Positions 5,609-20,810 of a stretch of 64,000 bases of DNA are shown piece after piece. This DNA comes from an uncultured Spirochaetaceae bacterium (lineage in GTDB: Bacteria > Myxococcota_A > UBA9160 > UBA4427). The notes under the pieces were generated by a model. That model was not told the origin of the DNA, ran no database searches, and saw nothing but the letters and a program-made list of their open reading frames with translations. The number at the start of each line of letters is the position of its first letter. Positions within the stretch are counted from its first letter, which is position 1. The stretch is taken from contig CAZETS010000005.1 of NCBI GenBank assembly GCA_964515335.1, forward strand, positions 10,174 to 74,173, read 5' to 3'. A program made the position numbers and the translations under genes.

Positions 5609-5776
5609 GGTGGGTAGAGGCCTTCCGAGCGCGGGCGAGCGACCACGATAGCGCCGGCCCGGTCGGGTCGCCGTGCCGACATCCGGCGCCGCCCCGGCCC
5701 CGGCCGGCGCAATGACCGCTCGGAAATCCGGCGCCCCCGGGGGCTCGAGCCGGCACGAGGAGCGGCCGAGGGCCGA

Positions 5777-7225
5777 TCAGACGGCGTCCTCCCCACGGCG
5801 CGCTCGCCGATCCAACGCCTCGAGGATCTCGCGATGCCGCTCACGCGTCATGCGGTAGCGCGAGAGGAAGATCAGCGTCAGCACATAGCAGAACATCAGC
5901 CCCGGCCCGACCGCCAGACCGAGCTTCACGATCTTGTCCGCGGACACCTCGCCGACCTCGGCCCCGCGCGGAAACGCGATCGCATCGAGAGCGATGCCGG
6001 CCGCGAACGATCCGATCCCCGACGCGGACTTGAGCGAGAAGGCGATCGCGGCGGAGAAGACGCCCTCGCGCCGCTGCCCGGTCTCGAGCTCACTCTCGTC
6101 CACGGTGTCGGCCACCATCGACGACGCGATGATCCCGATCGCGACCACCGGCACGATCAGGATGGTCACGTGCACGAGGATCAGGACGAAGAGCAACGGC
6201 TCGCCGTTCTCGGGCATCCATCCGGCCAGGCGCAGGAAGATCGGCAGCGGGCCGAAGAAGACCGCGAAGCTGGCGAGCCCGAGCGCGGCGCCACGCTTGT
6301 CGTAGCGCTCGGTGAGCCGCCGCGTGCCGAGGAAGGCCAGCACGATGGACAGCCCGGGCGTGACGAGCAGGAGGCTCAGCTGCTCGGTCGTGAACCCCCA
6401 GTAGTAGGTGTTCACGTACAGGCCGACGACGTCGTTGAAGCCGCCGGCCACCGAAGCACACATGAAGCTCGCGACGATCATCCGATACGACCGGTTCCCG
6501 AACGCGTCGCGCAGCTCGCCGCCCAGGCGCCGAAGCGAGAAGGGCTGAGCGGCGCTCGCCCCGCGCATCCGCGGGATCAAGCGGTGGGTGCCCGCCGCGC
6601 AGCTGATGATCGCGAGCACGACGACCACCGCACAGACGGCCCCCCAGCTCGCGTAGGCGCCCGGGTTCAGGCGCCCTTCCGGATACTCGGGGGTCGGGAC
6701 CAGGAAGTACCGGTAGGCGACGAACGTCATCGCGATGCCGCCGAGCCACCCGAGCAGATACCGCCAGCTCACCAGCGACGTACGCTCGTCGTAGTGGGTG
6801 GTCATCTCGGGCACCATGGCGGAGCTCGGGATCGAGTAGAACGTCATCGACACCCTCACGCCGACCGCGAAGCCGCAGAGCCAGACGAACAGGCCCGTCT
6901 GCGACAGCTCCGGGGGCGAGAAGAGCATCCAGAAGCACACCGCCATCGGGAGCGCCGAGCAGTACATGAACGGATGCCGCCGGCCCCAGCGCGACCGGAA
7001 GCCGTCCGAGAGCGAGCCGACGAGCGGATCGGTGACGGCGTCTACGCAGAGGGCGAGGAAGATCGCCAGTCCGGCCAGCGATCCCGAGAGCCCGAGGACG
7101 TTGTTGTAGTAGAAGAGCAGGAAGACGTTGAACGCGAAGTTCTTCGTCCCCTCGGCGATCGAGCCGCTGCCGTAGAAGGCCTTGACGGAGAGCGGCAGGC
7201 GCCCGGTCGACGACGCTCCGGTCAT
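5777..7225 (-). CDS. MFS transporter, glycoside-pentoside-hexuronide (GPH/MelB-like) family
   Basis: The N-terminus LSVKAFYGSGSIAEGTKNFAFNVFLLFYYNNVLGLS...AVTDPLVGSLSDGFRSRWGRRHPFM is the GPH-family signature, and there are about 12 hydrophobic segments. The start at 7225 forms an ATGA overlap with the upstream gene. Confidence 0.8.
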   Translation of the reverse strand: MTGASSTGRLPLSVKAFYGSGSIAEGTKNFAFNVFLLFYYNNVLGLSGSLAGLAIFLALCVDAVTDPLVGSLSDGFRSRWGRRHPFMYCSALPMAVCFWMLFSPPELSQTGLFVWLCGFAVGVRVSMTFYSIPSSAMVPEMTTHYDERTSLVSWRYLLGWLGGIAMTFVAYRYFLVPTPEYPEGRLNPGAYASWGAVCAVVVVLAIISCAAGTHRLIPRMRGASAAQPFSLRRLGGELRDAFGNRSYRMIVASFMCASVAGGFNDVVGLYVNTYYWGFTTEQLSLLLVTPGLSIVLAFLGTRRLTERYDKRGAALGLASFAVFFGPLPIFLRLAGWMPENGEPLLFVLILVHVTILIVPVVAIGIIASSMVADTVDESELETGQRREGVFSAAIAFSLKSASGIGSFAAGIALDAIAFPRGAEVGEVSADKIVKLGLAVGPGLMFCYVLTLIFLSRYRMTRERHREILEALDRRARRGEDAV

Positions 7226-7572
7226 TCGCCCGCGCTGAAGAAGTCGGCGCGGGGCTGACCGTTCGAGTCGTAGACGGCCTCGCAGAGATCCACGCGGTAC
7301 TTCGAGACCTCGGCGCCTCTCAGGCCGTGACGGCCGAGCGTCCGAAGCATGGCCGCGTAGTGGGGGCCCGCGAAGTGGGCGGCGAGATCCGCCTCGCGGG
7401 TCCAGCACTCGAAGACGGCGACGCGGCCGGGGGAGGCCGGGTCGGCGGTCCAGCTGTAGGCCTCGCAGCCCGCCTGCGCGAGGGCGCCGTCGATGTGGGG
7501 ACGGGCGGCGTCGAGGGCAGCCTCGCGTCGATCCGGATCGATCGCAATGGTGCCGGCGACGACGATCTTCAT
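7222..7572 (-). CDS. Antibiotic-biosynthesis-monooxygenase (ABM) domain protein
   Basis: MKIVVAGTIAIDPDRREAALDAARPHIDGALAQAGCEAYSWTADPASPGRVAVFECWTREADLAAHFAGPHYAAM fits the ferredoxin-like ABM pattern. The stop overlaps the transporter start (ATGA). Confidence 0.65.
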   Translation of the reverse strand: MKIVVAGTIAIDPDRREAALDAARPHIDGALAQAGCEAYSWTADPASPGRVAVFECWTREADLAAHFAGPHYAAMLRTLGRHGLRGAEVSKYRVDLCEAVYDSNGQPRADFFSAGE

Positions 7573-7706
7573 GGACGAGCTCCCTTGCCGGCCGGCGCGC
7601 GCAGAGGATGCGGGCTCGCACCCGGCCGGGCGCCCGAGTCTACACGAGCCTCCGAGCCGCCATCGGCCATCCACCCGGCGCCGCTCGGTTCCGTTCCCGG
7701 AGACCG

Positions 7707-7725: not shown

Positions 7726-8781
7726 TCACGCCGTGCGTCGTCGTGGCGAGCCGGCGCGCAGCCGGTGCCGGACCCATCGCAAAGCGCCCGTCCGCGGCGG
7801 ATACGGGTCGCTCTGCTCGATCTCCGCGGCGGGGGCGGGCGGCCGGGTCCGCCAACGGCGCTGCGACCACATCCACTGCTCGGGGTGGCGGCGCACCGCC
7901 GACTCGATGGAAGCGGTCATCCGCGCCACGTTGCGCTCGAGCGCTGCGGCGAACTCGGCGCTCCGCGGATCGCCACTCGCGGACTCGAAGTCGAGGGGCG
8001 GCCCGGCCGACACGACGTGACGGGCCTCTTCGCCGACGCGGTGACCGAAGACCGGCACCACCGGCACGCCCCGCCGCATGGCGATCAGTGCCGGCGCCGA
8101 GCGCGTGCAGGCCAGGCGCGAAAAGAATGGCACGAACACACCCTCGGCGGCCCGCGCGTTCTGGTCGAGCAGCACCACACCGATGCGCCCGTCGCGCAGC
8201 GCGCCCAGGAGCCGGCCGGCGGCGCGGGGCCCCATGCGGATCTCTTCGAGGTCACCGTCCCCGGCACCGCGCACGCGCGTCATCATGCGCGTGAGGCGCT
8301 CGTTGCCGAAACCTCGGTGGACGACGGTCAGCGGATAGCGGCGCGCGAGCGCCGCCGCATACAGGTCCCAGGTGCCGAAGTGTGCGCTCACCACGAGCAC
8401 GCCACCGGTCGGCGAGTCGGCGATCGACTGCTCGATGTGCTCGGCTGCGTCGAAACGCACGCCGTCGAGCACGGCCTCGCGGTGCGGCCCCTGCAGCAAA
8501 GCCAGCTCGGCGATTCCTCGGCCGAGGTTCGAGTAGGCGTCGCCAAGCAACCGCTCCCGATCCGCCACCGTCGCGTCGGGGAACGCGATGCCGAGGTTGA
8601 TGCGCGACAGGTCGGTCGCCGTGCCGCCGAGCGAAGCGACGCGCCGGCCCCAGGCGCCGCCGATCGCCAGCGCGCGCTCGGGCTCGCGGGCCGCGAGTGC
8701 GTCGCGCACGAGCCGCACGGGCAGGAACGACAGGGCGTCGCGCGTCGCGCTCGCCCGGTCCGAGGCGCCCTGCACGCTCAC
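7726..8781 (-). CDS. Lipid A biosynthesis (LpxL/HtrB/MsbB-family) late acyltransferase homologue
   Basis: GGVLVVSAHFGTWDLYAAAL (HxxxxD box), GVVLLDQNA, FFSRLACTRSAPALIAMRRGVPVVPVF and a C-terminal RRHPEQWMWSQRRWRTRP (the family-typical P-EQW-W--RRW tail). The GTG start at 8781 overlaps the folB stop (GTGA). Confidence 0.8.
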   Translation of the reverse strand: MSVQGASDRASATRDALSFLPVRLVRDALAAREPERALAIGGAWGRRVASLGGTATDLSRINLGIAFPDATVADRERLLGDAYSNLGRGIAELALLQGPHREAVLDGVRFDAAEHIEQSIADSPTGGVLVVSAHFGTWDLYAAALARRYPLTVVHRGFGNERLTRMMTRVRGAGDGDLEEIRMGPRAAGRLLGALRDGRIGVVLLDQNARAAEGVFVPFFSRLACTRSAPALIAMRRGVPVVPVFGHRVGEEARHVVSAGPPLDFESASGDPRSAEFAAALERNVARMTASIESAVRRHPEQWMWSQRRWRTRPPAPAAEIEQSDPYPPRTGALRWVRHRLRAGSPRRRTA

Positions 8782-9212
8782 GCCGGCCGGCGTCGCGTGA
8801 GGCGGACGCCCGTGCCCTCGACCGGTCCCGCGAGCGGCGCCGCCTTGCGCACGGTGACCGTGACGTGATCGATCGGGAAGCGCTCGAAGAGCGCCGAGGC
8901 GATGCGCTCGCCGAGTGCCTCGACGAGGCGGTGCTCGCCGCCGCCTGCCACTTCCTCGACCACCGCGTAGACGGCCCCGTAATCGATCGTGTCGGCGATG
9001 CGATCGCTCCGGCCCGCAGGCGCGAGCGAGCAGCCGAGCTCGAGGTCGATGCGCACGGGCCGGCGCATGCGGCGCTCGGCGGCCGTCACACCGAGCGCCG
9101 ACGGCACCTGCACGCCCTCGAGGAGGATCACGTCCGCTTCGGTCGCCCGTGCGGACCGGGATCCACTGTCGACCTCAGCTCGAGGCATCGCCGCGACCGC
9201 GGGGCGTCGCAT
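8778..9212 (-). CDS. folB: Dihydroneopterin aldolase
   Basis: ILLEGVQVPSALGVTAAERRMRRPVRIDLEL...SDRIADTIDYGAVY...LVEALGERIASALFERFP...VTVTVRKAAP aligns with the FolB catalytic Glu/Tyr/Lys positions. The start is ambiguous (9212 or MPRAEV at 9188); both overlap the carboxylase stop. Confidence 0.75.
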   Translation of the reverse strand: MRRPAVAAMPRAEVDSGSRSARATEADVILLEGVQVPSALGVTAAERRMRRPVRIDLELGCSLAPAGRSDRIADTIDYGAVYAVVEEVAGGGEHRLVEALGERIASALFERFPIDHVTVTVRKAAPLAGPVEGTGVRLTRRRPA

Positions 9213-12200
9213 CGCTCGGCCCGGATCGGCCGATGCGCAGCGCGGCCTCGAGGGTGGCGATCAGCTGCTCGCGCATACGTCGCGGCTCGATGATGGCCGA
9301 CAGCGACCCAACGTCGCGCGCTCGCTCGACGCTGTGGATGCGATCGAACTCCGCCGCCACCTCGCCCTGCTTCTCGAGCCGGACCTCCCGAAGCAGCGCG
9401 TCGAGCTCGGCGCGACCCTGGTCGGTGGGCTGGCCGCGCAGGCTCTGCTCCTTCTCGACGACGCGCGGATCGCGCACTGCCTGCGCGCGCACCTCGCGGG
9501 CGAACACCACCGAGGCCGCGGGGCCGCCGCCGATCACCGACGCGTACGAGCCGGTGAGCGCAGTCGCCTCGAGGCCGGGATTCAGCTCCTGCGAGAAAAC
9601 CACGTAGGCGCCGCCGTGGTAGCGCGATACCACGGTGAAGAGGATCGGACCCTCGAAGTTCACCACCGCGCGGGCGATCTCCGCCCCGTACTCGAGCTGC
9701 AGCTTGCGGAGCGACTCGGGGGAGCCGTCGAAGCCCGACAGGTTGGCGAGCACCACCACCGGGCGCACGCCGCTGGCCGCGTTGATGGCCCGAGCCACCT
9801 TCTTCGACGAGAACGGGAAGAGCGTGCCGCCGTTCCAGTCCTCCGGTCCGTCGTGGGGCCGGTAGCCGTCGCGCGGCAGCGTGTGACCCTCGATGCCGAT
9901 CAGCGTGGTCGAAATGCCGCCGAGGTGCGCGTCCCACACGATGGCCGTCTCGCCGCCCACCATCCGCTTCCAACGCTCGAGGTGTCCGCCGTCCTCGTCG
10001 ATCAGCGCCGACATCACGTTCCGCATCGCGAATGGCCGCTTGCGGCCGGGATTGGTCTCGTCGTCGAAGATCTCGCCGACGCTCGCGAACCCGAACGCGT
10101 CGTCCGGCGTCGCGAAGTCGCAGACCGAGCGGTGTCGGTCGTCCCCGCTCTCGCTGTGTCGCGGGCCCGGCTCGCCGGGCACCACGTACGAGTAGCGGTA
10201 GTGGTCGTAGAGGATGCGATAAGCGTCCGCGATGCCGATCGCGTAGTGCTGCGCCTCGCCGTTGGGGCCCATGATGCGCTCGTAGCCGCCGATCGCGAGC
10301 TCGTCCTCGGCCGAAACCGAGCCGGCCGCCTCGAGGGCGCGGCGGCCCGTCAGCACCATCGACGCCTCCTGGGTCATGATGAGCGTGCCGCGGGTGTGCA
10401 TCAGCATGGTGGCGAGCGCGTCGAAGTAGGCCTGGGCGCCGATGTTGACGCCGCAGACGATCACGTTCACCTCGCCGCCCGCCTGGGTGAAGGTGACGAT
10501 GCGGCGCACCACGCGCGCCGTGGCGTCGAGGTTCTCGGTGCCGCTGTCCATCGCGATGCGCGCGCCGCTCGACACGGCGACCCACTCGAGCGGCACCTGC
10601 ATGCGCTCGGCCAGGTCGAAGGCAGCCACCAGGCGGTCGCACTCGGGCGCCGCGAGCGCCCCCATGCCGATCGTCGGGTCGGAGAACGCCACGACGCGAC
10701 GCATGCCCTCGGGCAGCTTCTCGGTCGGCGTCGAGATGACGCCGATCACCACGCCCGCGCGGTTCTCCCCGTAGGCCCGCCCGGCCACGCTGATCGCGGT
10801 CGGGACATCCACCTCGGGATCGAGATCGTACTCCTCGAAGGTGCCGGTCGGCAGCGCGCTGACGGCCCGGTCGGGTGCACGCTCGACCAGGTTTCGATCT
10901 TCCGAGGTCAGGAGCTTCACCACCTCGTAGGGGTACGGCTGCCGGCTCCGCCGCGCGGCCATCACGCGCCGCTCGTAGTCGCCGGCGGGCTCGAGGGGAT
11001 CTCGATGCGGCTCGCGCATCGAGATCTCCATCTGCTCGCCGGTGTCGAGGATCTCGATCTCGCGGGTTCGCGCCGGGGCGTCGGGCTCGGCCGGGTCGAG
11101 GAGATTCAGCCGTACGATCACCTTGTCGAGACCGAGGTGCCGCGTTGCGGGGGCGAGCCGGCGGGACACCTCCTCGATGGATTCGTCGTCGAGGTAGACG
11201 GGCGGGGCGACGAACACCGCGATGCGGTTCCACTGCAGCCGGCGGCGCGCATCGCGCACCTGCAGGATGCCGCGCAGGCTGCGCGTCGCCCGGTGGAAGA
11301 CCCGCTCGAAGCCGGGCAGGTGGTTCGAGAGCTCCGGGCCCGCCTCCGAGGCGCGGTCGCGCATGTCGGCAAGCACGAACACGCGCTCGTCGCCCGGCAT
11401 CCCGATCGCGCGGCCGTGGAACGAATAGACGCCCTCCTCGGCGGGGATCCGCTCGAGCTCGAAGTTCGAGTAGCGATCGAGGTCGATGCGAGCGGCCGTC
11501 TCGGGGTGCAGGTCGTAGTACTGCCGGAGCACCACACCGCCCGACACGCGGTCCCAGGTCTTGAAGACGTGATCGATCCCGCCCTCCTCGCCGAGCAGGC
11601 CGAGCGTGAACCGGCAGTCGGGGCCGTCGCGGCCGAGCAGCGGCTCGAGGTCGGCGCGCACCGCCTCGAAGTCGATCTCCTCGCCGGGCGGCACGGCGAG
11701 CTCGAGGGCGTGCAGCCGCGTTCCGGGCTCGAGTTCGACGATCCGGCGCGCGGCGCGACACAGGCGCTCCGCAGAGTCGAGCAGGTCGCCGGCGTGAGCC
11801 GCCCCGACCATCACGAGCCCCGCCTCCGGATACTCGACGCAGTGGATGCGGGCAGTGTCGACGACCGCCGCGCGGAAGACGCTCGGAACCCGGGGCGAGT
11901 AGCGGCGCTGGGTGTGGGCGGCGAGCGCGATCTCGCGCCGCGTGACGTCGTCGGAGCTGATCCACTGCCCGACCCGGTCGAAGACCGCGCGCGGCGCCGC
12001 CGCCACCTCGAGCAGCACGCTCGTGGGCGGCACCGTGATCTCGTGCTCGGCCTCGGCGATCCACCGCTCGACCTCTCCGGAGACCCGCGCCGCCCGCCCC
12101 TCGATGCCGGGACGCAGGTGCGTCACGTAGGCGGCCTCGAGGGCGGCGTCGGCGACGGCGTCGCTGACCTGCGGCCGCAGCCGGGCGATCCGCGCGAGTG

Positions 12201-14850
12201 CGGTCGCCAGCGGAGCCTCGGTCTGGAGATCGATGCCCGCCTTGGCGAGGTCGGCGACGCGGCGAAGCATCGCCAGCACCAGTCGGTAGCGAAGCCCCGT
12301 CTCGCGTTGGGCGGACAGCATCCGAAGCACCGCGCGCAAGAGCCGGCCGCTCGGCGTGAGATCGCGCACGCCGTACTGCGCGAGTGCGCGACCCACCAGG
12401 TCGAGGAACTCCTGCTCGATGCCCGCCCCCTCGGCGCGCACGCGCCGCACGTACATGCGGAAGCGCGCGTCGTTGGACGGTCCGAGCTCACCCGACACCG
12501 AGGCTCGTGGCGCGCGGATGAAGACCTCCTCGAGGTCGACGAAGGTCTGCAACTCGTGACGAATCTCGGCGAGCTCCCGGCGGAAGCTCTCGGACAGATC
12601 GGGCGGGATCGGCGCCTCGAGAAAGTCGACCAGCCGATCGCCACGGGAGGGGTTGGCGTCGTAGCCGAGGATCAGCCGCCGCACCTCCTCGCGCACCGTG
12701 TCGATAGCCGCCCGGCGCGCCGTCAGGTCGGCGCCGTTCGCGGCGACGAGGTCGGGGATGCCGAGCGGACCGTCGCTCGACGGCGCGAACAGCACCGCGA
12801 GCGGGTCGACCTGGTCGGGAAGCGCGAGCCGCCGCGAGGGCACGCCGCCTTCGCCGCCCTCTGCGCCCGGGTCGATGACGAGCAGCACCTCGCCGGCCGC
12901 CACCTGCTGGCCGCTGTGCACGCGCACCTCGCGCACCACGCCCGAGACCGGCGCCTGGAAGCCGATCTCCATCTTCATGGCCTCGACGAGACCGAGCGAC
13001 TGCCCGGCCTGCACGGTGTCGCCGACCGCCACGTGCACCGCCACCACCATGGCGGGCGTGCCCGAGCGCACCTGGCCCGCGGTCTGCAGCCCGTACGCGT
13101 AGGGGCTGCCGTCGACCTCGAGCCGCATGCCCAGGTCGGAGGCGTCGTACTCGATGCGGCGCACGCGATCGTCGATGATCAGGCGCGCCTGGTGGTGACC
13201 CTCCTCGCGCATCTCGGCGCCGACCGCGCGGCCCTCGAGGTGCACCCGATAGCGCCAGGCGCCGATCGCGTAGACGGTGAGCTCGTATCCCTCGCCCTCG
13301 TAGGTGAGGTCGATCTGCTGCCCCTCGGCGGGCGGGATCGACGCGCGGGAGAGCGCACCGGGGTCGGCGTAGAAGGTGTCGCGCGCCCGGGCGCGGCCGC
13401 GTTGATAGGCGATGATGGCGGCCGCCACGAAGGCGTCGCGCTCCTCGGCGACGTCGCACAGCCGCGCGGTATCGCGCTCCTCGTTCCAGCGATCGAGCCA
13501 GGTGGTGTCGACGGGCCCGCTGCGGAACGCCTCGGCGCCGAGCAGCTCGATCAGGTAGCCCTTGTTGCTGGCGCCGCCCTCCACGACCAGCTCGAAGTCG
13601 CGCAGCGCGCACTCGAGCCGGGCCCGCGCCTCCTCGCGGTCGTCGCCGGTGGCGATCACCTTGGCGATCAGCGAATCGAAGTCCGACGAGACCGAGGTGC
13701 CCGAGGTCACCCCCGAGTCGATGCGAATCCGCGGGCCGAGTGCCGGGTCGAACCGCGCGACGAAGCCCGGCGACGGCAGGAAGCCCTGGTCGGGATCCTC
13801 GGCGCAGACGCGCGCTTCGATGGCCACGCCGCGCTCGACCACCTCGACGTCGGCGATCGATTCGCCGCGTGCGATGCGGACCTGCAGCTGCACGAGGTCG
13901 ACACCGGTGATCTCCTCGGTGATGCCGTGCTCGACCTGCAGGCGCGGGTTCACCTCGAGGAAGAAGAACTCGCTGCCGCCGAGCAGGAACTCGACGGTGC
14001 CGACGCCCGTGTAGCCGACCTGGGTGGCCATCTCGACGGCCGAGCGCTCGAGCGCTTCGCGCACGGCGGGGTCGAGACCGGGGGGCGGCGCCTCCTCGAG
14101 CACCTTCTGGTGTCGGCGCTGCACCGAGCAGTCGCGGCTGCCAACGGCGGTCACGTGGCCGTGCCGATCGGCGGCGATCTGCACCTCGATGTGGCGTCCG
14201 CCGGTCACCATCTTCTCGACGAAGAGGGCGCCGTTGCCGAACGCCCCCTCGGCCTCGGCGGCCGCCGAGCGGAAGGCCTCCTCGATCTCGGCCTCCTCGC
14301 GGACGATGCGAATGCCGCGCCCGCCCCCGCCCGCCGTCGCCTTGATGACCACCGGGTAACCGATGCGCGCTGCGTGGCGGCGCGCCTCGGCGGCATCGGC
14401 GAGCGCGCCGCCGCTCCACGGCGTGACGGGGACGCCCGCCTTCTCGGCGAGCTGCTTCGAGGTGATCTTGTCGCCGAGCCGGCGCATCGCGTCGGCGGAC
14501 GGGCCGAGGAAGCGGATCCCCTCGGCGGCCAGACGATCGACGAACAGCGGGTCCTCGGCGACGAACCCCCAGCCCGGCCAGACAGCGTCGGCCTCGACCT
14601 GGCGCAGCGCCGTCAGCAGACGCGCGTGATCGAGATACGCGGCAACCGCGCCGCCGTCGCTCGGCAGCTCGATGGCGCGATCGGCGTGCCGCACGAAGGG
14701 CGCATCGCGATCGGGCCGCGTGTAGAGGGCCACCACCTCCATCGAGCTGCCCTCGACGGCGCGCAGTGCCTTGACGGCGCGAATGCAGCGCAGCGCGGGC
14801 TCGCCGCGATTCACGATGGCGAGTCGCCGGATCTCGTCCCGGGCCGTCAC
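9175..14850 (-). CDS. Single-chain multidomain biotin-dependent acyl-CoA carboxylase (BC - BCCP - long central region - carboxyltransferase), 1,891 codons
   Basis: BC domain: RRLAIVNRGEPALRCIRA, VIKATAGGGGRGIRIV, FLEVNPRLQVEHGITE. BCCP: GLVEAMKMEIGF (biotinyl-Lys codon at 12973..12975). CT: VVAFSDPTIGMGALAAPE...VCGVNIGAQAY...LANLSGFDGSPESLRKLQLEYGAEIARAVVNFEGPILFTVVSRYHGGAYVVF. The GTG start at 14850 overlaps the PPTase stop (GTGA) and retains the conserved BC N-terminus. Confidence 0.9.
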   Translation of the reverse strand: MTARDEIRRLAIVNRGEPALRCIRAVKALRAVEGSSMEVVALYTRPDRDAPFVRHADRAIELPSDGGAVAAYLDHARLLTALRQVEADAVWPGWGFVAEDPLFVDRLAAEGIRFLGPSADAMRRLGDKITSKQLAEKAGVPVTPWSGGALADAAEARRHAARIGYPVVIKATAGGGGRGIRIVREEAEIEEAFRSAAAEAEGAFGNGALFVEKMVTGGRHIEVQIAADRHGHVTAVGSRDCSVQRRHQKVLEEAPPPGLDPAVREALERSAVEMATQVGYTGVGTVEFLLGGSEFFFLEVNPRLQVEHGITEEITGVDLVQLQVRIARGESIADVEVVERGVAIEARVCAEDPDQGFLPSPGFVARFDPALGPRIRIDSGVTSGTSVSSDFDSLIAKVIATGDDREEARARLECALRDFELVVEGGASNKGYLIELLGAEAFRSGPVDTTWLDRWNEERDTARLCDVAEERDAFVAAAIIAYQRGRARARDTFYADPGALSRASIPPAEGQQIDLTYEGEGYELTVYAIGAWRYRVHLEGRAVGAEMREEGHHQARLIIDDRVRRIEYDASDLGMRLEVDGSPYAYGLQTAGQVRSGTPAMVVAVHVAVGDTVQAGQSLGLVEAMKMEIGFQAPVSGVVREVRVHSGQQVAAGEVLLVIDPGAEGGEGGVPSRRLALPDQVDPLAVLFAPSSDGPLGIPDLVAANGADLTARRAAIDTVREEVRRLILGYDANPSRGDRLVDFLEAPIPPDLSESFRRELAEIRHELQTFVDLEEVFIRAPRASVSGELGPSNDARFRMYVRRVRAEGAGIEQEFLDLVGRALAQYGVRDLTPSGRLLRAVLRMLSAQRETGLRYRLVLAMLRRVADLAKAGIDLQTEAPLATALARIARLRPQVSDAVADAALEAAYVTHLRPGIEGRAARVSGEVERWIAEAEHEITVPPTSVLLEVAAAPRAVFDRVGQWISSDDVTRREIALAAHTQRRYSPRVPSVFRAAVVDTARIHCVEYPEAGLVMVGAAHAGDLLDSAERLCRAARRIVELEPGTRLHALELAVPPGEEIDFEAVRADLEPLLGRDGPDCRFTLGLLGEEGGIDHVFKTWDRVSGGVVLRQYYDLHPETAARIDLDRYSNFELERIPAEEGVYSFHGRAIGMPGDERVFVLADMRDRASEAGPELSNHLPGFERVFHRATRSLRGILQVRDARRRLQWNRIAVFVAPPVYLDDESIEEVSRRLAPATRHLGLDKVIVRLNLLDPAEPDAPARTREIEILDTGEQMEISMREPHRDPLEPAGDYERRVMAARRSRQPYPYEVVKLLTSEDRNLVERAPDRAVSALPTGTFEEYDLDPEVDVPTAISVAGRAYGENRAGVVIGVISTPTEKLPEGMRRVVAFSDPTIGMGALAAPECDRLVAAFDLAERMQVPLEWVAVSSGARIAMDSGTENLDATARVVRRIVTFTQAGGEVNVIVCGVNIGAQAYFDALATMLMHTRGTLIMTQEASMVLTGRRALEAAGSVSAEDELAIGGYERIMGPNGEAQHYAIGIADAYRILYDHYRYSYVVPGEPGPRHSESGDDRHRSVCDFATPDDAFGFASVGEIFDDETNPGRKRPFAMRNVMSALIDEDGGHLERWKRMVGGETAIVWDAHLGGISTTLIGIEGHTLPRDGYRPHDGPEDWNGGTLFPFSSKKVARAINAASGVRPVVVLANLSGFDGSPESLRKLQLEYGAEIARAVVNFEGPILFTVVSRYHGGAYVVFSQELNPGLEATALTGSYASVIGGGPAASVVFAREVRAQAVRDPRVVEKEQSLRGQPTDQGRAELDALLREVRLEKQGEVAAEFDRIHSVERARDVGSLSAIIEPRRMREQLIATLEAALRIGRSGPSDATPRGRGDASS

Positions 14851-15515
14851 GAGGCGAGCCTCGCGGGCGTGTGTGCGGCCGGCAGCCGGCACGCGAAGGC
14901 GACCAGCCCGCCGTGGTGGGACAGCGAAAGGTCGGCGCCGCTGGGCGCCCGGTCGAGGAGCAGCTCGGGGATGCGTCCGCGCTTCGCGATGGCGAGGCGC
15001 GTCACCGCGACCCCCAGACGGTCGGCGAGGCGCTCCCGGGCGAGTCGGCGCGCCGCCGCGCTGTGCACGGCGGGCGTGAGCGGGGCGTCGGGCCCGGCGG
15101 CGAGGCGCTCGAATCCGTGGACGAGGCCCGCCGGTCCCTCGTCGGACCAGGTCGCGATGGCGTGCACGGCGCCGTCCGCGCACGTGATCGAGAGCGCGAC
15201 GCGGTGGTCGCCGTGAACCACCCCGCCGGCCCGCGAGGTCGGTGCGGCGCCGCGCTCCAGCCAGGTGTCGGGCTCGGCCGCGAGGTCGACCCGAAAGCGC
15301 ACCGGAGAGAAGGCCGTGTCCGGGTCGCGCTTCTTCACGAGCTTGTAGGCGGCCTCCTTGGCGGCCCAGTGACACCAGCGCTCGCGGCAGGGATCGGCCG
15401 CGCCACGAATCGCGACGCGCTCTTCGGGCCGGCACACGCGCGCGTCGAAGCGCTCGCGGGGCCGACGCGGATCCGCGTCGCGATCGCGCAGGTCGACGAT
15501 GTCATTGCCCACCAT
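14847..15515 (-). CDS. 4'-phosphopantetheinyl transferase
   Basis: MVGNDIVDLRD (AcpS/PPTase motif 1-like) and HWAAKEAAYKL (W/F-x-x-KE-A-x-x-K motif). At about 222 aa it has Sfp-like length. It overlaps both neighbours. Confidence 0.75.
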   Translation of the reverse strand: MVGNDIVDLRDRDADPRRPRERFDARVCRPEERVAIRGAADPCRERWCHWAAKEAAYKLVKKRDPDTAFSPVRFRVDLAAEPDTWLERGAAPTSRAGGVVHGDHRVALSITCADGAVHAIATWSDEGPAGLVHGFERLAAGPDAPLTPAVHSAAARRLARERLADRLGVAVTRLAIAKRGRIPELLLDRAPSGADLSLSHHGGLVAFACRLPAAHTPARLAS

Positions 15516-16350
15516 CGACAGCCTCCGGCGACTCCGCGCAGGCACCCCGTGCGCGGAAGTGCTCGTCCTCCATGCGGGCGAGCTGAGCGAGCACTTGATT
15601 GGCGAGGTCGCGCGAGCGGCGCGCGCCGCGCGCGTCGGACTTGGGCTCGATACACGAGACCGACACGCGGATCGTGTCGCCGCGCGCCGGGTAATCGCTC
15701 CAGCTCGCCTGTGCGTCGCCGCGCATGTACACACAGGCCACTCGACACCCCTCCACGGAGCCGACGACGCGCCCGACCCCCCAGGCCGCGTTGTCGACCG
15801 ACACACGGCCCGAACGACTGCGCCCACCCTCCGGAAACAGCAACGCGATCTCACCGCGCTCGAGCACGTAGCGGATCCGGTCGAGCACCTCGGCGACGTC
15901 CTCGCGGCTGCCGCCGCGCCGGATCGGAATGCACTTCGCGAGATAGACGAGCACGCGCATCGCAGCGGTCCGCGCGAAGTTCGCTTCCTCGGGCGTGTTC
16001 CAGGGCAGGGCGTCGAAGTCCACCACGTACCGCCAGCTCGGCCCGATCGCCCAGGCGATCAGAAACGAGTCGATCAGCGTGAGGTGGTTGGCGCAGATCA
16101 GCAGCGGCGCGCCCGACGCGGCCCGGATGCGCGCAAAGGCGCGCCGCGTCGCGGCGACGTCGGCGATCCGGTAGCCGAGCACGAAGCGCAGCACGAGCGC
16201 CGCGGCCGGCACCCAGATCGGCGCGACCAGCCAGCCGACGGCCCGCTGCACGCGGTGCCGCCGCTCGAGGGCGGCCGCCACCGGGATCGGCGTCATGGCG
16301 TCGACCCGGGTCACGGCAGGCTCGGCGCGATCGGCTCGGGGGCGAGACAC
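15502..16350 (-). CDS. PlsC/LPLAT-family (1-acyl-sn-glycerol-3-phosphate-type) acyltransferase
   Basis: LLICANHLTLIDSFL (HxxxxD) and LLFPEGGRSRSGR (block III). The N-terminus is hydrophobic. The start is uncertain (GTG 16350 or MTPIPV at 16296). Confidence 0.8.
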   Translation of the reverse strand: MSRPRADRAEPAVTRVDAMTPIPVAAALERRHRVQRAVGWLVAPIWVPAAALVLRFVLGYRIADVAATRRAFARIRAASGAPLLICANHLTLIDSFLIAWAIGPSWRYVVDFDALPWNTPEEANFARTAAMRVLVYLAKCIPIRRGGSREDVAEVLDRIRYVLERGEIALLFPEGGRSRSGRVSVDNAAWGVGRVVGSVEGCRVACVYMRGDAQASWSDYPARGDTIRVSVSCIEPKSDARGARRSRDLANQVLAQLARMEDEHFRARGACAESPEAVDGGQ

Positions 16351-16747: not shown

Positions 16748-18025
16748 TCAATCCTGCCACCGCCTGAAGACCAGGCAAGCGTTCACGTCGCCGAACCCGA
16801 ACCCGGCCTTCACGAGCACGTCGAGACCCTCGAGCTCGCGCAGGGTGTGAGGAATCGATGCCTCATGGGGCTCGATCTCGGGGTGGACGTCCTCGCAGTT
16901 GATCGACGGGTGCACGAAGCCCCCGCGCACCATCAGCACCGAAGCCACACACTCGACGGCGCCGGCCGCGCCGAGCGCGTGGCCGATCATCGATTTGGTG
17001 GACGTGATGGGGGGCAGCTCGCCCGGCCCGCGGCCGAGGGCCGCCGCCCAGGAGCCGATCTCCTTCGGATCGGCGCCGGTCGCGGTGAGATGACCGTTGA
17101 TGGCGTCCACGTCGTCGGCCGGGGTGCCCGCGTCCTCGAGGGCCGCGTGGATGCAGCGGCGCACGCTCTCCGGGTTGGGGGCCGTCATGCTGCCCCCCAT
17201 CCGGTGCCCGCCGCAGTTGATCGCCTGCCCGGCCACCTCGGCGTAGATCCTTGCGCCGCGCGCCCGCGCCGACTCCTCGCTCTCGAGCATCAGCACGCCG
17301 GCCCCCGAGCCCGGCACGAAGCCGCCCGCCGAGGCGCTCATCGGGCGCGAGGCCTTCTCGGGGGCGTCGTTCGAGCCGCGGTTGAGGACCCGCATCGCGT
17401 CGAAGCCGGCCCAGATGTAGTGGCTGGCCGCCTCGGCGCCCCCGCACAGCATGCGCTGGGCGCGTCCGGCGCGGATGCGCTCCAGCCCCATCGCGATCGC
17501 CTCGGTGCCGGTGCTGCAGGCGCTCGAATTCGTCGTCACCTGGTTGCCGAGCGCGAACTGGCCCGACACCCGCGCCGAGATGCCGCTCGCCATCACCTGC
17601 TCGACGGCCGTCGACCCCAGCCGACGCGCCTTGCCGGCGTCGGTCAGCGGAACCACCCTGGCGCCGATCGTGTCCATGCCGCCGATGCCGGTGCCGAGGA
17701 TCGCACCCGTGTCCCAGTCGACCACGTCCCCGTCGCGCGCCGGGCGCTCGAGGCCGGCGTCGAGCCAGGCCTCGAGGGTGGCGAGGCTCGCGTAGCGGTG
17801 GCTCATGTTCATCGCGAGGAGCTCGTCCTCGTCGAAACGCTCGGCGACCAGCTCGTCGACGCCCTGCGGCACACCCGCCACAGTGCAGCCGAACTTGCTC
17901 TCGGCCATCTGCTCGATGTGCCGGATGCCCGACTCGCCCTTGCGGAGCGCCTCCTCGTAGTCGCCGAGCCCCACGCCGTTCGGCGCGACCACCCCCATTC
18001 CGGTGACCACCACGCGCCGTGTCAT
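16748..18025 (-). CDS. Beta-ketoacyl-ACP synthase I/II (FabB/FabF-type)
   Basis: RRVVVTGMGVVAPNG, active-site NSSACSTG, DAINGHLTAT, SMIGHALGAAG and FGFGDVNACLVF. The start MTRRV at 18025 forms an ATGA overlap with the upstream dehydratase. Confidence 0.9.
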   Translation of the reverse strand: MTRRVVVTGMGVVAPNGVGLGDYEEALRKGESGIRHIEQMAESKFGCTVAGVPQGVDELVAERFDEDELLAMNMSHRYASLATLEAWLDAGLERPARDGDVVDWDTGAILGTGIGGMDTIGARVVPLTDAGKARRLGSTAVEQVMASGISARVSGQFALGNQVTTNSSACSTGTEAIAMGLERIRAGRAQRMLCGGAEAASHYIWAGFDAMRVLNRGSNDAPEKASRPMSASAGGFVPGSGAGVLMLESEESARARGARIYAEVAGQAINCGGHRMGGSMTAPNPESVRRCIHAALEDAGTPADDVDAINGHLTATGADPKEIGSWAAALGRGPGELPPITSTKSMIGHALGAAGAVECVASVLMVRGGFVHPSINCEDVHPEIEPHEASIPHTLRELEGLDVLVKAGFGFGDVNACLVFRRWQD

Positions 18026-18507
18026 TTCGGAACCCCCATGCCGGACAGCTCGCCCGAGCAAACCACGCTGCCGTCATCGAGCTTCATCTCGACCTCGGCC
18101 CTCAGCTTCTTGCGGCGAAAGAACTTCACGCGGCCGGTCGTGGTCACCCGGTCGCCCGGCAGCACCTGGCCCGAGAAGTCGATCGTGCAGTCGGTGAACA
18201 CCGTCACGACCTTCTCGAGCTCTTCGGGCGCCACCTCGAGCGCATACAGGTAGAGGCCCTGCGCGACGACACCGGCCTGCGCCATCGTCTCGATCAGGAT
18301 CACGCCCGGCGTGATCGGGTTGCCGGGGAAGTGGCCGCGGTAGAAGTCGGCGTCCTTCGGGAACGTGTAGCTCGCCACGATGTGCTCGCGGTCGAGCTCG
18401 TGGATGGTGTCGATGAAGCGGAACGGCGCCTGCTGGGGGACGCGCGCGAGCACCTGCTCCTTCGTCAGCACCTGGGCGACGTCGCCGCTCTCCGCCCGAC
18501 TAGCCAC
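18022..18507 (-). CDS. FabZ-like hot-dog-fold 3-hydroxyacyl-ACP dehydratase
   Basis: PFRFIDTIHELDREH...YRGHFPGNPITPGVILIETMAQAG is the FabZ catalytic His/Glu context. The GTG start overlaps the fabG stop by 8 nt. Confidence 0.8.
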   Translation of the reverse strand: MASRAESGDVAQVLTKEQVLARVPQQAPFRFIDTIHELDREHIVASYTFPKDADFYRGHFPGNPITPGVILIETMAQAGVVAQGLYLYALEVAPEELEKVVTVFTDCTIDFSGQVLPGDRVTTTGRVKFFRRKKLRAEVEMKLDDGSVVCSGELSGMGVPK

Positions 18508-19228
18508 CGTACATGCCCCCGTTCACGTGGATCACCGTGCCGTTCACGTAGCTGCCGCGGTTGGCGAGGAACGAGACGACGTCGGCGACCTCTTCGGCGG
18601 TCCCCATCCGGCCCTGCGGGATGCGCGAGAGGATCGCGCCCTTCACCTCGTCGGGCAGCTCGTCGGTCATGTCCGTGTCGATGAAGCCCGGCGCCACCGA
18701 GTTGACGAGGATCTCGCGACCGGCCAGCTCCTGGGAGAGCGACTTGGTGAACGCATCGAGGCCGGCCTTCGCCATCGTGTACGGGATCTGGCCAGGATTG
18801 CCGGTGTGGCCGACCACGCTCGAGATGTTGATGATGCGCCCGGCCGACTTGCGGAACATGAAGCGGCGCAGCACCAGCTTGGTGAGGTACCAGGTGCCGC
18901 GCGCCAGACCCGCCACCGCGTCGTACTGCTCGAGGTTCATCGTCAACATGGGAGCGTTGACGTTGTAGCCCGCGTTGTTGACGAGCACGTCCACACGGCC
19001 GGCTTCTTCCTTGATGGTCTTGATGACCGCGTCGACCTGCTCGGCATCGGCGAGATCGCCCTGCAAGCCGAACGACTCCGGCAGCTCGGCCATCAGCTTC
19101 CGGGCCTTCTCCTCGCTCGAGCGGTAGTGGACCGCCACCCGGTAGCCGTCCGCAGCAAGGCGACGCGCGCAGGCGGCGCCGATGCCGGTGGCGGCGCCGG
19201 TGACGAGGGCGACGGGCAGGTCGCTCAT
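18500..19228 (-). CDS. fabG: 3-oxoacyl-ACP reductase (SDR)
   Basis: VALVTGAATGIGAA (TGxxxGxG), NNAG, and the S...YxxxK triad (ISSVVG...YTMAKAGL). Confidence 0.9.
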   Translation of the reverse strand: MSDLPVALVTGAATGIGAACARRLAADGYRVAVHYRSSEEKARKLMAELPESFGLQGDLADAEQVDAVIKTIKEEAGRVDVLVNNAGYNVNAPMLTMNLEQYDAVAGLARGTWYLTKLVLRRFMFRKSAGRIINISSVVGHTGNPGQIPYTMAKAGLDAFTKSLSQELAGREILVNSVAPGFIDTDMTDELPDEVKGAILSRIPQGRMGTAEEVADVVSFLANRGSYVNGTVIHVNGGMYGG

Positions 19229-19818
19229 CGCTCCATCCTCCCGCCGCGCGAGCGCTCGGAGGCCAGCGGGTAGTCGGGGTAGTCGATGTCGCGGAAGAGC
19301 CCGACACGCGCGCCCTTCACGGTGTAGATCTCGTCGTCGTCGACGAACAGGCTCGCGTCGCCGATCACCATGGAGGCGCCGGCGTTCTGCAGCTCGGTGT
19401 AGCGCTTCACCTTGATCTCGTAACGAATCACCGAATCGTGGGGGCGGATCTGCCCGAAGAACTCCACCTCCCCGCAGCCGAGCGCGCGGCCGCTGCCGAG
19501 CCCGCCGCGCCAGTTGCAGTAGAAGCCGAGCAACTGCCAGATGCCGTCGAGGCCGAGACAGCCCGGTTGGACCGGATCACCCTGGAAGTGGCACTGGAAG
19601 AACCAGTCGTCGAGGTTGACGTCGCGCTCGGCCACGATGCGCCCGCGCGGCCCCTTCGCGCTGATCTCGAGCACGCGATCGACCATCAGCATCGGAGGCG
19701 TCGGCAGCCTGGCCTTGAGGGCCTCGGGCGCATCCTTGACGAGCCGACCGTACGCGAAGGCCAGCAGCTCGGGCTTCGCGAAGTGATCGCGCGCCTTGAA
19801 CTCCTCGTAGGTCATCAT
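19225..19818 (-). CDS. fabA: FabA-type 3-hydroxyacyl-ACP dehydratase/isomerase
   Basis: LPTPPMLMVDRV...DDWFFQCHFQGDPVQPGCLGLDGIWQLLGFYCNWRGG...GRALGCGEVEFFGQI is almost collinear with the E. coli FabA core [34 protein letters not shown]. It has ATGA overlaps at both ends. Confidence 0.85.
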   Translation of the reverse strand: MMTYEEFKARDHFAKPELLAFAYGRLVKDAPEALKARLPTPPMLMVDRVLEISAKGPRGRIVAERDVNLDDWFFQCHFQGDPVQPGCLGLDGIWQLLGFYCNWRGGLGSGRALGCGEVEFFGQIRPHDSVIRYEIKVKRYTELQNAGASMVIGDASLFVDDDEIYTVKGARVGLFRDIDYPDYPLASERSRGGRMER

Positions 19819-20810
19819 GACCCGGCACCCGCGTCGAACCGCAGCAGATACGACGACCAGGTGAGCCCCGAGCCGACGCCCACTACCGCGATGTCGTCGT
19901 CGGCACGCCACTTGTCCCACATCTGCGAGACCACCGATCCCGAGCTCGCCGCCCCGGTGTTGCCGTACCACTCGGCGTTGCTGTGGTGCCGGTCGGAGGG
20001 GATATCGCAGCGCTTGCAGACGGCCTCGAGCATGCGCAGGTTGGCCTGGTGGCCGACGAAGTGCAGCCGCCGATCGCCGCCGTCGTGCTCTTCCTTGATG
20101 GCGTTGTAGAGCAGCGCCGTCTTCTTGATGGCGAACATCTGGACGGTGCGGCCCTCCTGCTCGAAGTAGCCCTCGCGCGGGATCAGCACCTTGTCGTTGC
20201 CCGCCGGACTCGACTCGAGCCGCGTCGAGACGATCTCGGCGCGGCCCTTGCGGCGCGGCGAGAGCACCGCCGCGAGGCCCGCGTCGCCCCACAGCACCGC
20301 GGCGGCGCGATCCGAATAATCGACGGTGCGCGTCATCGACTCCATGGAGACCAGCAGCACGTAGTCGGGCAGCGCGTCGGGCCGCATCATGTCGAGCATG
20401 TGCAGGCCGGCGAGGAAGCTCGTACAGGCCGAGTTCACGTCGACCGCAGGCGCCTCGATGTCGAGCGCGCGCGCGAGGTTGCAGGCCTCGGCGGGCGATA
20501 CCGTGTCGGGCGCACAGCTGCCGCCGATCACCAGGCCGACGTCCGAGGCGGAGATACCGGCCCGCTCGAGGGCAAGGCGGGCGGCCCGTGCTCCGAGTTC
20601 GGCGTTCGAGTGCTCGGCCGCCTCGGCGGCCGCGCGGGTCTCGGCGTTGCGGGTCTCGCGGATGTAGTCGAGCGGCAGCACGGTGCGCCGGGCCCGGATG
20701 CCGACCCGTTCCATCACCCACTGGTCGCTGGTCCCGATGTCGAGCGACTCGAGGAAGGCGTTCGTGATTTCGTTCTCGGGATGGAAGTGCCCGAGCCCCA
20801 GGAGATTCAA
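19815..20810 (-). CDS. fabH: Beta-ketoacyl-ACP synthase III (FabH-like)
   Basis: ITNAFLESLDIGTSDQWVMERVGIRARR, VNSACTSFLAGL (Cys), FVGHQANLRM (His), YGNTGAASSG (Asn). TTG start at 20810, preceded by GGAGG 8 nt upstream. Confidence 0.85.
   Translation of the reverse strand: MNLLGLGHFHPENEITNAFLESLDIGTSDQWVMERVGIRARRTVLPLDYIRETRNAETRAAAEAAEHSNAELGARAARLALERAGISASDVGLVIGGSCAPDTVSPAEACNLARALDIEAPAVDVNSACTSFLAGLHMLDMMRPDALPDYVLLVSMESMTRTVDYSDRAAAVLWGDAGLAAVLSPRRKGRAEIVSTRLESSPAGNDKVLIPREGYFEQEGRTVQMFAIKKTALLYNAIKEEHDGGDRRLHFVGHQANLRMLEAVCKRCDIPSDRHHSNAEWYGNTGAASSGSVVSQMWDKWRADDDIAVVGVGSGLTWSSYLLRFDAGAGS

Follow-up and report, generated by a model that had tools for sequence, protein, structure and literature searches.

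A single-chain acyl-CoA carboxylase of eukaryote-like domain plan encoded in a conserved type II fatty acid synthesis operon of uncultured Myxococcota

The window analyzed here is a stretch of 64,000 nucleotides from an uncultured Myxococcota bacterium (GenBank assembly GCA_964515335.1, contig CAZETS010000005.1). Its minus strand encodes a large acyl-CoA carboxylase (ACC) as the ninth gene of an operon of type II fatty acid synthesis (FAS II) genes. The protein carries in one chain a biotin carboxylase (BC) domain, a linker similar to the BC-CT interaction (BT) domain, a BCCP (biotin carboxyl carrier protein) domain, a central domain (CD) and a carboxyltransferase (CT) domain, in that order. 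Along the minus strand a gene for a DinG-like helicase is followed by a 357-bp gap and then by the genes for FabH, FabA, FabG, FabZ, a ketosynthase (KS), an acyl carrier protein (ACP), a PlsC-like acyltransferase, a 4'-phosphopantetheinyl transferase (PPTase), the ACC, FolB, and an LpxL-like acyltransferase. An MFS/GPH transporter gene lies downstream of the LpxL-like gene, followed by the genes for CofG and CofH. The coordinates and the evidence for each assignment are given in Table 1.

Table 1. The ACC gene, its domains and the other operon genes in the window, with the number of related loci in which each operon gene was found among those assessable
Feature	Positions	Strand	Evidence and remarks	Loci with match/assessable loci
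Single-chain acyl-CoA carboxylase, coding sequence	9175..14850	-	1,891 aa, GTG start, TGA stop; Pfam, NCBIfam, full-length homologues	
BC domain, residues 7-453	13492..14832	-	Pfam, NCBIfam; best PDB matches are the bacterial-type BC of pyruvate carboxylase, of MCC (methylcrotonyl-CoA carboxylase) and of PCC (propionyl-CoA carboxylase)	
BT-like linker, residues 454-596	13063..13491	-	Homology only	
BCCP domain, residues 597-659	12874..13062	-	Pfam Biotin_lipoyl; motif position	
Central domain, residues 661-1380	10711..12870	-	Pfam borderline, family profile, AlphaFold2 model, Foldseek	
CT domain, both lobes fused, residues 1381-1871	9238..10710	-	Pfam Carboxyl_trans E 5.9e-28; PDB ranking	
FabH-like 3-ketoacyl-ACP synthase III, first operon gene	19815..20810	-	Pfam ACP_syn_III, ACP_syn_III_C; NCBIfam under cut-off; 357-bp gap upstream	57/59 (upstream)
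FabA, bifunctional 3-hydroxydecanoyl-ACP dehydratase/isomerase	19225..19833, probable start near 19818	-	NCBIfam NF003509 210.6 bits, cut-off 124	52/60 (upstream)
FabG-type 3-oxoacyl-ACP reductase	18500..19228	-	NCBIfam TIGR01830 255 bits; NF009466 222 bits, exactly at cut-off	53/60 (upstream)
FabZ/ApeI-like hot-dog dehydratase	18022..18507	-	Pfam FabA-like; NCBIfam fabZ under cut-off; orthologues match ApeI-like	59/61 (upstream)
FabF/FabB-like elongating KS	16748..18061, probable ATG 18025 overlapping FabZ stop	-	Pfam ketoacyl-synt N and C	60/62 (upstream)
Atypical ACP, 82 aa	16382..16630	-	Pfam PP-binding; NCBIfam ACP models all under cut-off	66/68 (upstream)
PlsC-type (lysophospholipid/glycerolipid) acyltransferase	15502..16350	-	Pfam Acyltransferase E 9e-13	68/70 (upstream)
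PPTase, about 230 aa, start uncertain	14847..15545	-	Pfam ACPS; stop overlaps ACC start	66/71 (upstream)
FolB (dihydroneopterin aldolase)	8778..9212	-	Pfam, TIGR00525; ORF overlaps ACC 3' end	29/69 (downstream)
LpxL/HtrB-family (lipid A late/lysophospholipid) acyltransferase	7726..8781	-	Pfam Lip_A_acyltrans E 1e-37; NCBIfam under cut-off; 4-nt overlap with FolB stop	52/69 (downstream)

The ACC gene is a single intact reading frame. A preliminary description of this DNA had reported one uninterrupted frame of 1,891 codons with a GTG start overlapping the PPTase stop, and both statements hold. The translation contains one stop, at its end, and the GTG (14848-14850) shares bases with the TGA of the upstream PPTase frame (14847-14849) in the sequence GTGA. 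The N-termini of the homologues coincide with this GTG in the alignment, and three related loci (L001-L003) have the same 4-nt overlap. The G+C content of the window is about 71%, and this produces long spurious open reading frames (ORFs) on both strands. One of them, a longer version of the ACC ORF reaching to 15435 in the mechanical listing, was rejected, as its extra part is rich in arginine and runs out of frame across the PPTase gene. A filter based on G+C at the third codon position (GC3) marks the minus-strand frame 9175-15501 as coding with a GC3 of 0.89, like that of neighboring genes, and the overall GC content at the ACC gene, 72-74%, is similar to that of its flanks. A protein identical to the window ACC is on record from 12 contigs. 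Its full-length relatives form at least 120 protein clusters of 1,740-1,912 aa with 60-80% identity, so the frame is no product of misassembly.

The N-terminal part of the protein is closest to bacterial-type biotin-dependent carboxylases. Pfam places Biotin_carb_N at residues 7-122, CPSase_L_D2 at 127-332 (E 2.4e-67) and Biotin_carb_C at 345-453, and the best PDB matches of the BC part are bacterial-type enzymes, not eukaryotic ACC. The BC motifs GGGGRGIR, RDCSVQRRHQKVLEEAP, EVNPRLQVEH and EARVCAEDP are intact; we take them to be equivalent to the catalytic residues of E. coli BC. GGGGRGIR at residue 174 and EVNPRLQVEH at residue 299, on which the BC domain was originally recognized, are invariant in an alignment of 34 homologues. 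The AccC-type models of NCBIfam match just residues 7-458, with scores under their cut-offs. In the PDB search, residues 6-660 align end to end with residues 7-651 of the MCC alpha subunit 3u9s, which has BC, BT, and BCCP domains. Biotin_lipoyl matches residues 597-659 (E 6.5e-16) and includes the motif EAMKME at residue 623. The biotinyl-lysine is K626, encoded by AAG at 12973-12975, which is where it had been placed before, and A624, M625 and K626 are invariant in the 34 homologues.

The middle region of about 720 residues is a true homologue of the central domain of eukaryotic ACC. In the Pfam scan that had been proposed for this protein, the three BC families, Biotin_lipoyl and Carboxyl_trans were matched, and ACC_central was borderline (residues 839-985, 23.8 bits, cut-off 23.2). 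The homology is visible only with a family profile and a structure model, not in a single-sequence search of the PDB. With residues 661-1380 as a single sequence, phmmer found only two chance-level matches to ribosomal protein uL13 in the PDB, and the search with a profile of the full-length family was taken up by matches to BC, which left the middle region uninformative. A profile built from the 661-1380 region of 15 family members matched solely ACC central-domain chains in the PDB at E < 0.1. Yeast 5i6e, 5csa, 5csk and 5cs4 and Chaetomium 5i6h and 5i6i had E values between 4e-6 and 5e-4, human ACC1 had 0.03, and the matched parts lie in two collinear stretches.

The predicted structure points in the same direction. 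An AlphaFold2 model of the central domain, made from the family alignment, has a mean pLDDT of 80.2 and a pTM of 0.74. It consists of an all-helical part at residues approximately 700-985 (40-325 of the modeled segment), an alpha/beta unit at approximately 991-1109 (331-449) and a second one at approximately 1130-1279 (470-619). The first alpha/beta unit has two long helices inserted after its third and fourth strands, and the second has the same pattern. According to PMC4833862, CDN in the yeast central domain is helical, CDL has four helices, and CDC1 and CDC2 have duplicated folds; the sub-domain topology of the model agrees with this description. The helical part would correspond to CDN plus a CDL-like portion and the two alpha/beta domains would be CDC1/CDC2-like. 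A Foldseek search of the PDB with the model gave 30 matches at E <= 0.001. Each is a central-domain entry of a eukaryotic ACC; the E values range from 1.4e-19 to about 1e-6, the probability is 1.00, and about 650-830 columns are aligned where the whole domain is covered. The next class is armadillo repeats, at E of about 0.01. Identity to the eukaryotic central domains in the structural alignments is about 15%, and the high root mean square deviations fit the known hinge motions between the sub-domains. The preliminary description could name no motif in this region and proposed that it may be analogous to the eukaryotic central domain. The resemblance stands, but the profile matches (best E 4e-6) and the Foldseek matches to the model show homology rather than mere analogy. 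In one detail the model differs from yeast. Strands beta2 and beta3 of CDC1 (segment residues 340-347 and 351-357) are joined by a 3-residue turn, while in yeast this connection is a 36-residue phospho-regulatory loop containing Ser1157 (PMC4833862). Tentatively, this loop has no counterpart in the window ACC.

The CT domain ranks nearest to the CT of eukaryotic ACC rather than to beta subunits of the PccB/AccD type, in a similarity ranking against the PDB that reflects scores and not phylogeny. With the single sequence, the 16 best matches are eukaryotic ACC CT chains (E 5e-12) and the first PccB-like beta subunit follows at 1e-7. With the CT family profile, eukaryotic ACC CTs fill the first 20 places (67-48 bits), and beta subunits begin at 42 bits. 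No chain of LCC, the mycobacterial long-chain acyl-CoA carboxylase, is among the 33 or 43 matches at E <= 1e-3 in the single-sequence and profile searches. Both halves of the CT are fused, as had been stated from the motifs LANLSGFDGSPESLRKLQLEYGAEIARAVVNF at residue 1701 and HGGAYVVF at residue 1745, and Carboxyl_trans spans residues 1381-1871. The N lobe carries SSGARIAMD and the C lobe carries LANLSGFDGS and RYHGGAYVV. The alignments show three motifs in common with eukaryotic ACC, namely SGARI(G/A)M, LAN-x-x-GF-x-G (LAN(W/L)xGF(S/D)G when written with the observed alternatives), and (R/H)GG-x-(W/Y)VV with its RGG or HGG.

Overall, the domain order, the homology of the central domain and the CT ranking bear out the earlier view that this protein follows the plan of eukaryotic cytosolic ACC (yeast Acc1, human ACC1/2; PDB 5csl, 5i6e, 6g2i), with which it also shares the CT motifs. 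It differs from these enzymes in several respects. Its chain is shorter by about 350-450 residues, the BC-BT-BCCP part is nearer to bacterial MCC and PCC alpha subunits than to eukaryotic BC, and the CT is compact, with about 510 aa against about 750 aa. The low identity of its central domain and the apparent lack of the CDC1 loop, a tentative mapping, add to these differences. Of the features that mark a eukaryotic ACC proper, the CDC1 phospho-loop, the eukaryote-type BC inserts and the CT of about 750 aa, none was found in the window ACC.

Bacteria were already known to have this architecture. The precedent is SACE_4237 from Saccharopolyspora erythraea, the first prokaryotic multidomain ACC to be characterized. 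According to Livieri et al. 2019 (PMC6491548), it is a protein of about 200 kDa with the order BC-BCCP-central-CT, active only as a homodimer, which carboxylates acetyl-CoA and propionyl-CoA at similar efficiency and does not carboxylate palmitoyl-CoA. The same paper reports that it is essential for de novo fatty acid synthesis, for which it supplies malonyl-CoA, and that its CT clusters with eukaryotic ACC (group V of those authors); it lists orthologues only in Actinobacteria, where the fusion was proposed to have arisen. As there described, SACE_4237 resembles the window ACC in its single chain, its domain order, a central region related to the eukaryotic one, and a CT that goes with eukaryotic ACC CT. 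With 1,891 aa, the window ACC also falls within the size range of such multidomain enzymes, about 1,800-2,400 aa. The hosts differ, an actinobacterium in one case and an uncultured member of the Myxococcota in the other. The window gene is also translationally coupled to a PPTase gene in a fab operon.

The preliminary description had named the mycobacterial LCC as the precedent, and this was the wrong match. LCC is likewise a bacterial single-chain biotin-dependent acyl-CoA carboxylase. It lacks a central domain, forms a homohexamer, prefers long-chain acyl-CoA and is an independent fusion (PMC4833862 and PMC6491548, in the latter of which it is group III), while the window ACC has a central domain of 720 aa. 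Membership in the LCC type was rejected on account of the central domain and the lack of LCC chains among the CT matches. In the canonical AccA/AccB/AccC/AccD system the BC, the BCCP and the two CT halves are on separate polypeptides, while here all are in one frame. The carboxylase subunits of the PrmP3 and SACE_0026 type, found in polyketide and polyunsaturated fatty acid (PUFA) gene clusters (group IV in PMC6491548), are similar in being encoded beside the synthase that consumes their product. They differ in having separate CT subunits of the multi-subunit type and no single chain with a central domain.

The window ACC and the multidomain ACCs of actinobacteria belong to one family that extends over at least four phyla, since the window protein is 41% identical from end to end to a Thermoleophilia member; SACE_4237 enters this comparison by its description only. 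In the blastp alignments, identity is 41% with the Thermoleophilia protein (residues 9-1877), 41% with a Holophaga protein (residues 7-1874), and about 48% with the remaining distant members, where the alignments cover CDC2 plus CT. An exhaustive profile search of 1.84 billion representative sequences gave 1,119 matches at E <= 1e-3, of which 295 reach E <= 1e-30; many of the matched proteins are 1,750-1,900 aa long. Those with names among the close relatives in the 120 or more clusters are proteins of metagenome-assembled genomes (MAGs) from Myxococcota or Deltaproteobacteria and have generic names. Named distant members come from Holophaga, Blastocatellia, Ktedonobacteraceae, Anaeromyxobacteraceae, Polyangiaceae, Acidimicrobiia, and Thermoleophilia, and further members are labeled Acidobacteriota and Chloroflexota. 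When GTDB species were searched with one genome each, 163 stretches were found to encode a central-domain relative. Of these, the 80 best were kept as loci; all 80 come from uncultured MAGs, mostly labeled Myxococcota or Deltaproteobacteria and many of them marine, and 78 have a near-full-length CT match. Two findings are new: the family extends to an extensive clade of uncultured Myxococcota and to further phyla, and in the Myxococcota clade the gene belongs to an operon that has an ACP and a PPTase of its own. The literature search found no paper on a Myxococcota version of the multidomain ACC.

The operon is a type II FAS set, but it is not a complete FAS II. Genes for FabH, KS, FabG, FabZ and FabA, and ACP are all present as discrete, contiguous genes, and the gaps between genes from fabH to the LpxL-like gene range from -44 to +117 nt, which indicates a single transcription unit. 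No FabD (Acyl_transf_1) was found in the window operon or in any related locus, and no enoyl-ACP reductase was found in the operon or in the whole 64-kb window. The set is therefore incomplete. The earlier statement that the ACC is embedded in a type II FAS operon holds for the contiguous fab and ACP genes and for their conserved order, but not for FabD and, at this locus, the enoyl reductase. Among the Fab proteins, FabA alone is clearly above its NCBIfam cut-off and FabG just reaches one, while FabH, KS and FabZ are under theirs. The KS scores 305 bits with the fabF model (cut-off 494), and its sequence shows the active-site cysteine and two histidines. At the attachment site of the ACP, LKVNSARL stands in place of the usual DSL. 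FolB is probably a passenger gene. Rfam detects no RNA family anywhere in the window, and thus no riboswitch or leader upstream of fabH.

The operon is conserved in relatives. Its proteins were compared by tblastn with the best 80 of the 163 loci, counting for each gene the loci with enough flanking sequence and, for upstream genes, only same-strand matches upstream of the ACC. Each of the eight upstream genes is kept in approximately 87-97% of the assessable loci (Table 1), and three relatives at 61-70% identity (L001-L003) have the same gene order. A FabV/TER-like enoyl reductase gene precedes fabH in 40 of 59 loci, though not in the sub-clade of the window. It encodes a short-chain dehydrogenase/reductase of 314-320 aa with a GGSSGFGLA N-terminus and a match to Pfam Enoyl_reductase (L002 2959-3921, L003 3924-4868), and a few loci have this reductase and no FabA. 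The ACC gene stands alone in Holophaga, Anaeromyxobacteraceae and Ktedonobacteraceae, and in Thermoleophilia it is near FAS II genes but not inside them. Because other lineages place the gene differently, its embedding together with a PPTase appears to be a Myxococcota trait. In the Holophaga-labeled locus L085, a gene for a radical-SAM protein with a BATS domain, similar to biotin synthase (bioB), lies about 1.7 kb downstream of the ACC on the opposite strand (17310-18245). A distant member in a Polyangiaceae MAG (L084 1875-16113) lies between a synthase similar to PUFA synthases and polyketide synthases (PKS) and a PPTase. That cluster comprises an acyl-CoA dehydrogenase, a 1,933-aa protein with ketosynthase, acyltransferase, ketosynthase and ACP domains (KS-AT-KS-ACP), a 799-aa ketoreductase-dehydratase (KR-DH), the ACC and an Sfp-type PPTase (4PPT_N plus ACPS).

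These results suggest that the gene encodes a fused biotin-dependent acyl-CoA carboxylase of the SACE_4237 family whose malonyl-CoA is most likely used by the co-encoded type II synthase, with a probability of roughly 85%. The architecture, the homology of each domain, the intact catalytic and biotinylation motifs and the conservation of the operon are direct observations, whereas dimer formation, the choice of substrate and the metabolic link to the synthase are our interpretation. For the catalytic cycle, family knowledge and the SACE_4237 precedent serve as the guide. K626 would be biotinylated by the biotin ligase of the host, and the BC domain would carboxylate biotin with ATP and bicarbonate. 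BCCP would then move to the active site that two CT domains form between them in a homodimer, where the carboxyl group would pass to acetyl-CoA, and possibly also to propionyl-CoA, yielding malonyl-CoA. The central domain would act as a non-catalytic, hinged scaffold that places BC and BCCP relative to the CT dimer. Translation of the ACC is probably coupled to that of the PPTase, and this PPTase may activate the atypical ACP. Malonyl-CoA would be loaded onto that ACP by a FabD encoded elsewhere and then used by the type II synthase, and the PlsC-like and LpxL-like enzymes may transfer the acyl-ACP products to lipid acceptors. The embedding in the operon is real and strongly conserved, which makes the supply of malonyl-CoA to the adjacent synthase the natural, if conditional, reading. 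The presence of FabA suggests that the operon makes cis-unsaturated chains.

Several points weigh against this reading. Outside BC, the similarity to eukaryotic ACC is weak, with 49-67 bits for CT, 28 bits for the CD profile, and the 15% or so of structural identity noted above. The substrate cannot be read from the sequence, and the assignment of the window protein comes from sequence and model. With FabD missing from the operon, no local gene accounts for the step from malonyl-CoA to malonyl-ACP. Membership in an operon would also mean co-expression and not metabolic channeling.

Two views of the physiological role appear about equally probable, each a little below even odds. The ACC may be the only acetyl-CoA carboxylase of the lineage and the operon its primary fatty acid synthase, as with SACE_4237 in S. 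erythraea, which PMC6491548 describes as essential and housekeeping. Synteny kept in nearly all of the approximately 60 assessable species agrees with this, as does the neighborhood: the operon adjoins housekeeping genes, those for the DinG-like helicase, FolB and CofG/CofH, and in relatives it lies within about 10 kb of dnaA. The reductase gene of 40 of 59 relatives would complete the elongation cycle, and no accA or accD is among the scanned ORFs of the 64-kb window, some ORFs of which were left unscanned. The protein set argues against a primary synthase. The ACP has NS instead of DSL and is under the cut-off of every NCBIfam ACP model, FabH, KS and FabZ are under equivalog cut-offs, and FabD is missing. 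A dedicated Sfp-sized PPTase with two acyltransferases is typical of specialized lipid or aryl-polyene-like clusters, and the ApeI/ApeP-like matches of the dehydratases agree with this. Alternatively, the operon may be a second, dedicated type II synthase that makes one kind of acyl chain, probably cis-unsaturated, for a defined lipid of a membrane or of the outer membrane, with the fused ACC as its private source of malonyl-CoA. The atypical ACP site and the low scores of ACP, FabH, KS and FabZ point to such a specialized rather than a canonical system, and the ACP with its own PPTase, the divergent Fab proteins, the true FabA, and the PlsC-like and LpxL-like acyltransferases fit it. It is also consistent with the pairing of the ACC-PPTase couple with a PUFA/PKS-like synthase in the Polyangiaceae relative and with the solitary ACC genes of other phyla. 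Near-universal conservation in the clade and a position near the replication origin are, on the other hand, commoner for core metabolism, and no thioesterase or export genes are conserved. Judged from Pfam names, aryl-polyene-type clusters share with the operon a KS, a ketoreductase (KR), two hot-dog dehydratases, a dedicated ACP and PlsC-like and LpxL-like acyltransferases. The operon lacks the adenylating starter enzyme, chain-length-factor KS, thioesterase, methyltransferase, and export genes of those clusters, and it has a true FabA, FabH and an ACC. To our knowledge, aryl-polyene-type clusters contain no ACC.

It is unlikely that the main substrate is instead propionyl-CoA or a long-chain acyl-CoA, as in LCC, giving methylmalonyl-CoA or alkylmalonyl-CoA extenders. 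SACE_4237 takes propionyl-CoA about as efficiently as acetyl-CoA, and CT specificity is not readable at such divergence. Yet ACC CTs head the list of CT matches, from which LCC chains are missing, SACE_4237 is inactive on palmitoyl-CoA (both statements on SACE_4237 being from PMC6491548), and synthase partners of the FabH, FabF and FabA types use malonyl-ACP. There is practically no chance that the gene is an artefact, such as an assembly or frameshift fusion of subunit genes, or was recently transferred from a eukaryote. The same frame of 1,850-1,900 aa is found in the 120 or more protein clusters and in related MAG loci, GC and GC3 match the surroundings, and the protein is 41% identical from end to end to bacterial members of other phyla but only about 15% identical to eukaryotic central domains. 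These explanations were thus ruled out, and no point in their favor was found.

The distribution of the family bears on ideas about the origin of eukaryotic ACC. The central domain was called unique to eukaryotes in 2016 (PMC4833862), and a 2019 paper proposed that the fusion arose 'among actinobacteria' (PMC6491548). The present search finds the same architecture in 163 stretches of genome sequence, the best 80 of them from uncultured and mostly Myxococcota-labeled MAGs, and in other phyla. To speak of an 'actinobacterial homodimeric ACC' therefore needs re-examination with broader sampling, and so does the origin that was proposed for the eukaryotic enzyme. Eukaryotic lipid genes were recently proposed to derive from Myxococcota, without mention of ACC (bioRxiv 10.64898/2026.05.08.723234). 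It seems very improbable at present that the donor of eukaryotic ACC1 has its nearest living relative in the ACC of the Myxococcota clade and not in an actinobacterial one. If it were true, the committed step of fatty acid synthesis would join the eukaryotic lipid genes of proposed Myxococcota origin. Whole-protein scores against yeast and human ACC are 312 and 305 bits for the window protein and 332 and 337 bits for the Thermoleophilia member, a crude comparison that gives no hint of closer kinship and would neither support nor exclude a Myxococcota origin of ACC1. A search of an essentially prokaryotic protein collection with a fragment of the yeast central domain returned only two short fragments.

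The enzyme has potential uses. A compact bacterial ACC with a central domain, tentatively without the phospho-regulatory loop and with a good AlphaFold model, would be a tractable model for how this domain positions BC, BCCP and CT, and a source of malonyl-CoA encoded by one gene is attractive for metabolic engineering. What the present analysis adds in this regard is the identification of the middle region as an ACC central domain from a profile and a structure model. The conserved operon represents either an unusual organization of primary lipid synthesis or a dedicated lipid pathway in an uncultured marine lineage.

The genes around the operon are partly conserved as well. The DinG/YoaA-like helicase directly upstream of fabH has 950-990 aa (window 21168-24107, minus strand; L001 683-3544; L003 1-2769). 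In relatives it has an N-terminal RNase_T (DnaQ-like exonuclease) domain, and a helicase match is present in 45 loci. Upstream of the helicase is a thiamine pyrophosphate enzyme of 548 aa (24079-25725, minus strand), a position that is kept in L001. Its best matches are an 'acetolactate synthase' model at 522 bits, below the cut-off of 587, and 2-hydroxyacyl-CoA lyase at 355 bits. Relatives have dnaA some 7-10 kb downstream from their ACC operon (L001 22494-24122, L002 19295-21229), which places their lipid operon near the presumed replication origin; it was not found in the corresponding part of the window. The transporter between the LpxL-like gene and CofG is an MFS_2/GPH-family symporter of 614 aa (5777-7621, minus strand) with an N-terminal extension of about 140 residues, and 2 of 64 related loci have it at the same position. 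CofG (4376-5608, minus strand; TIGR03550, 410 bits, cut-off 213) and CofH (approximately 3162-4370, minus strand; TIGR03551, 459 bits, cut-off 374) together form the synthase of FO, the deazaflavin chromophore, and they are two separate genes, as in relatives. An 864-aa ORF at 3162-5756 on the minus strand that looked like a fused FbiC-like protein was rejected, as its N-terminal half extends in the wrong frame across the true CofG gene. Many relatives keep CofG and CofH in synteny downstream of the operon, and 42 of 59 loci have a CofG-like match. Downstream of CofH, the window encodes a methyltransferase (2353-3120) and a GT2 glycosyltransferase (1189-2232).

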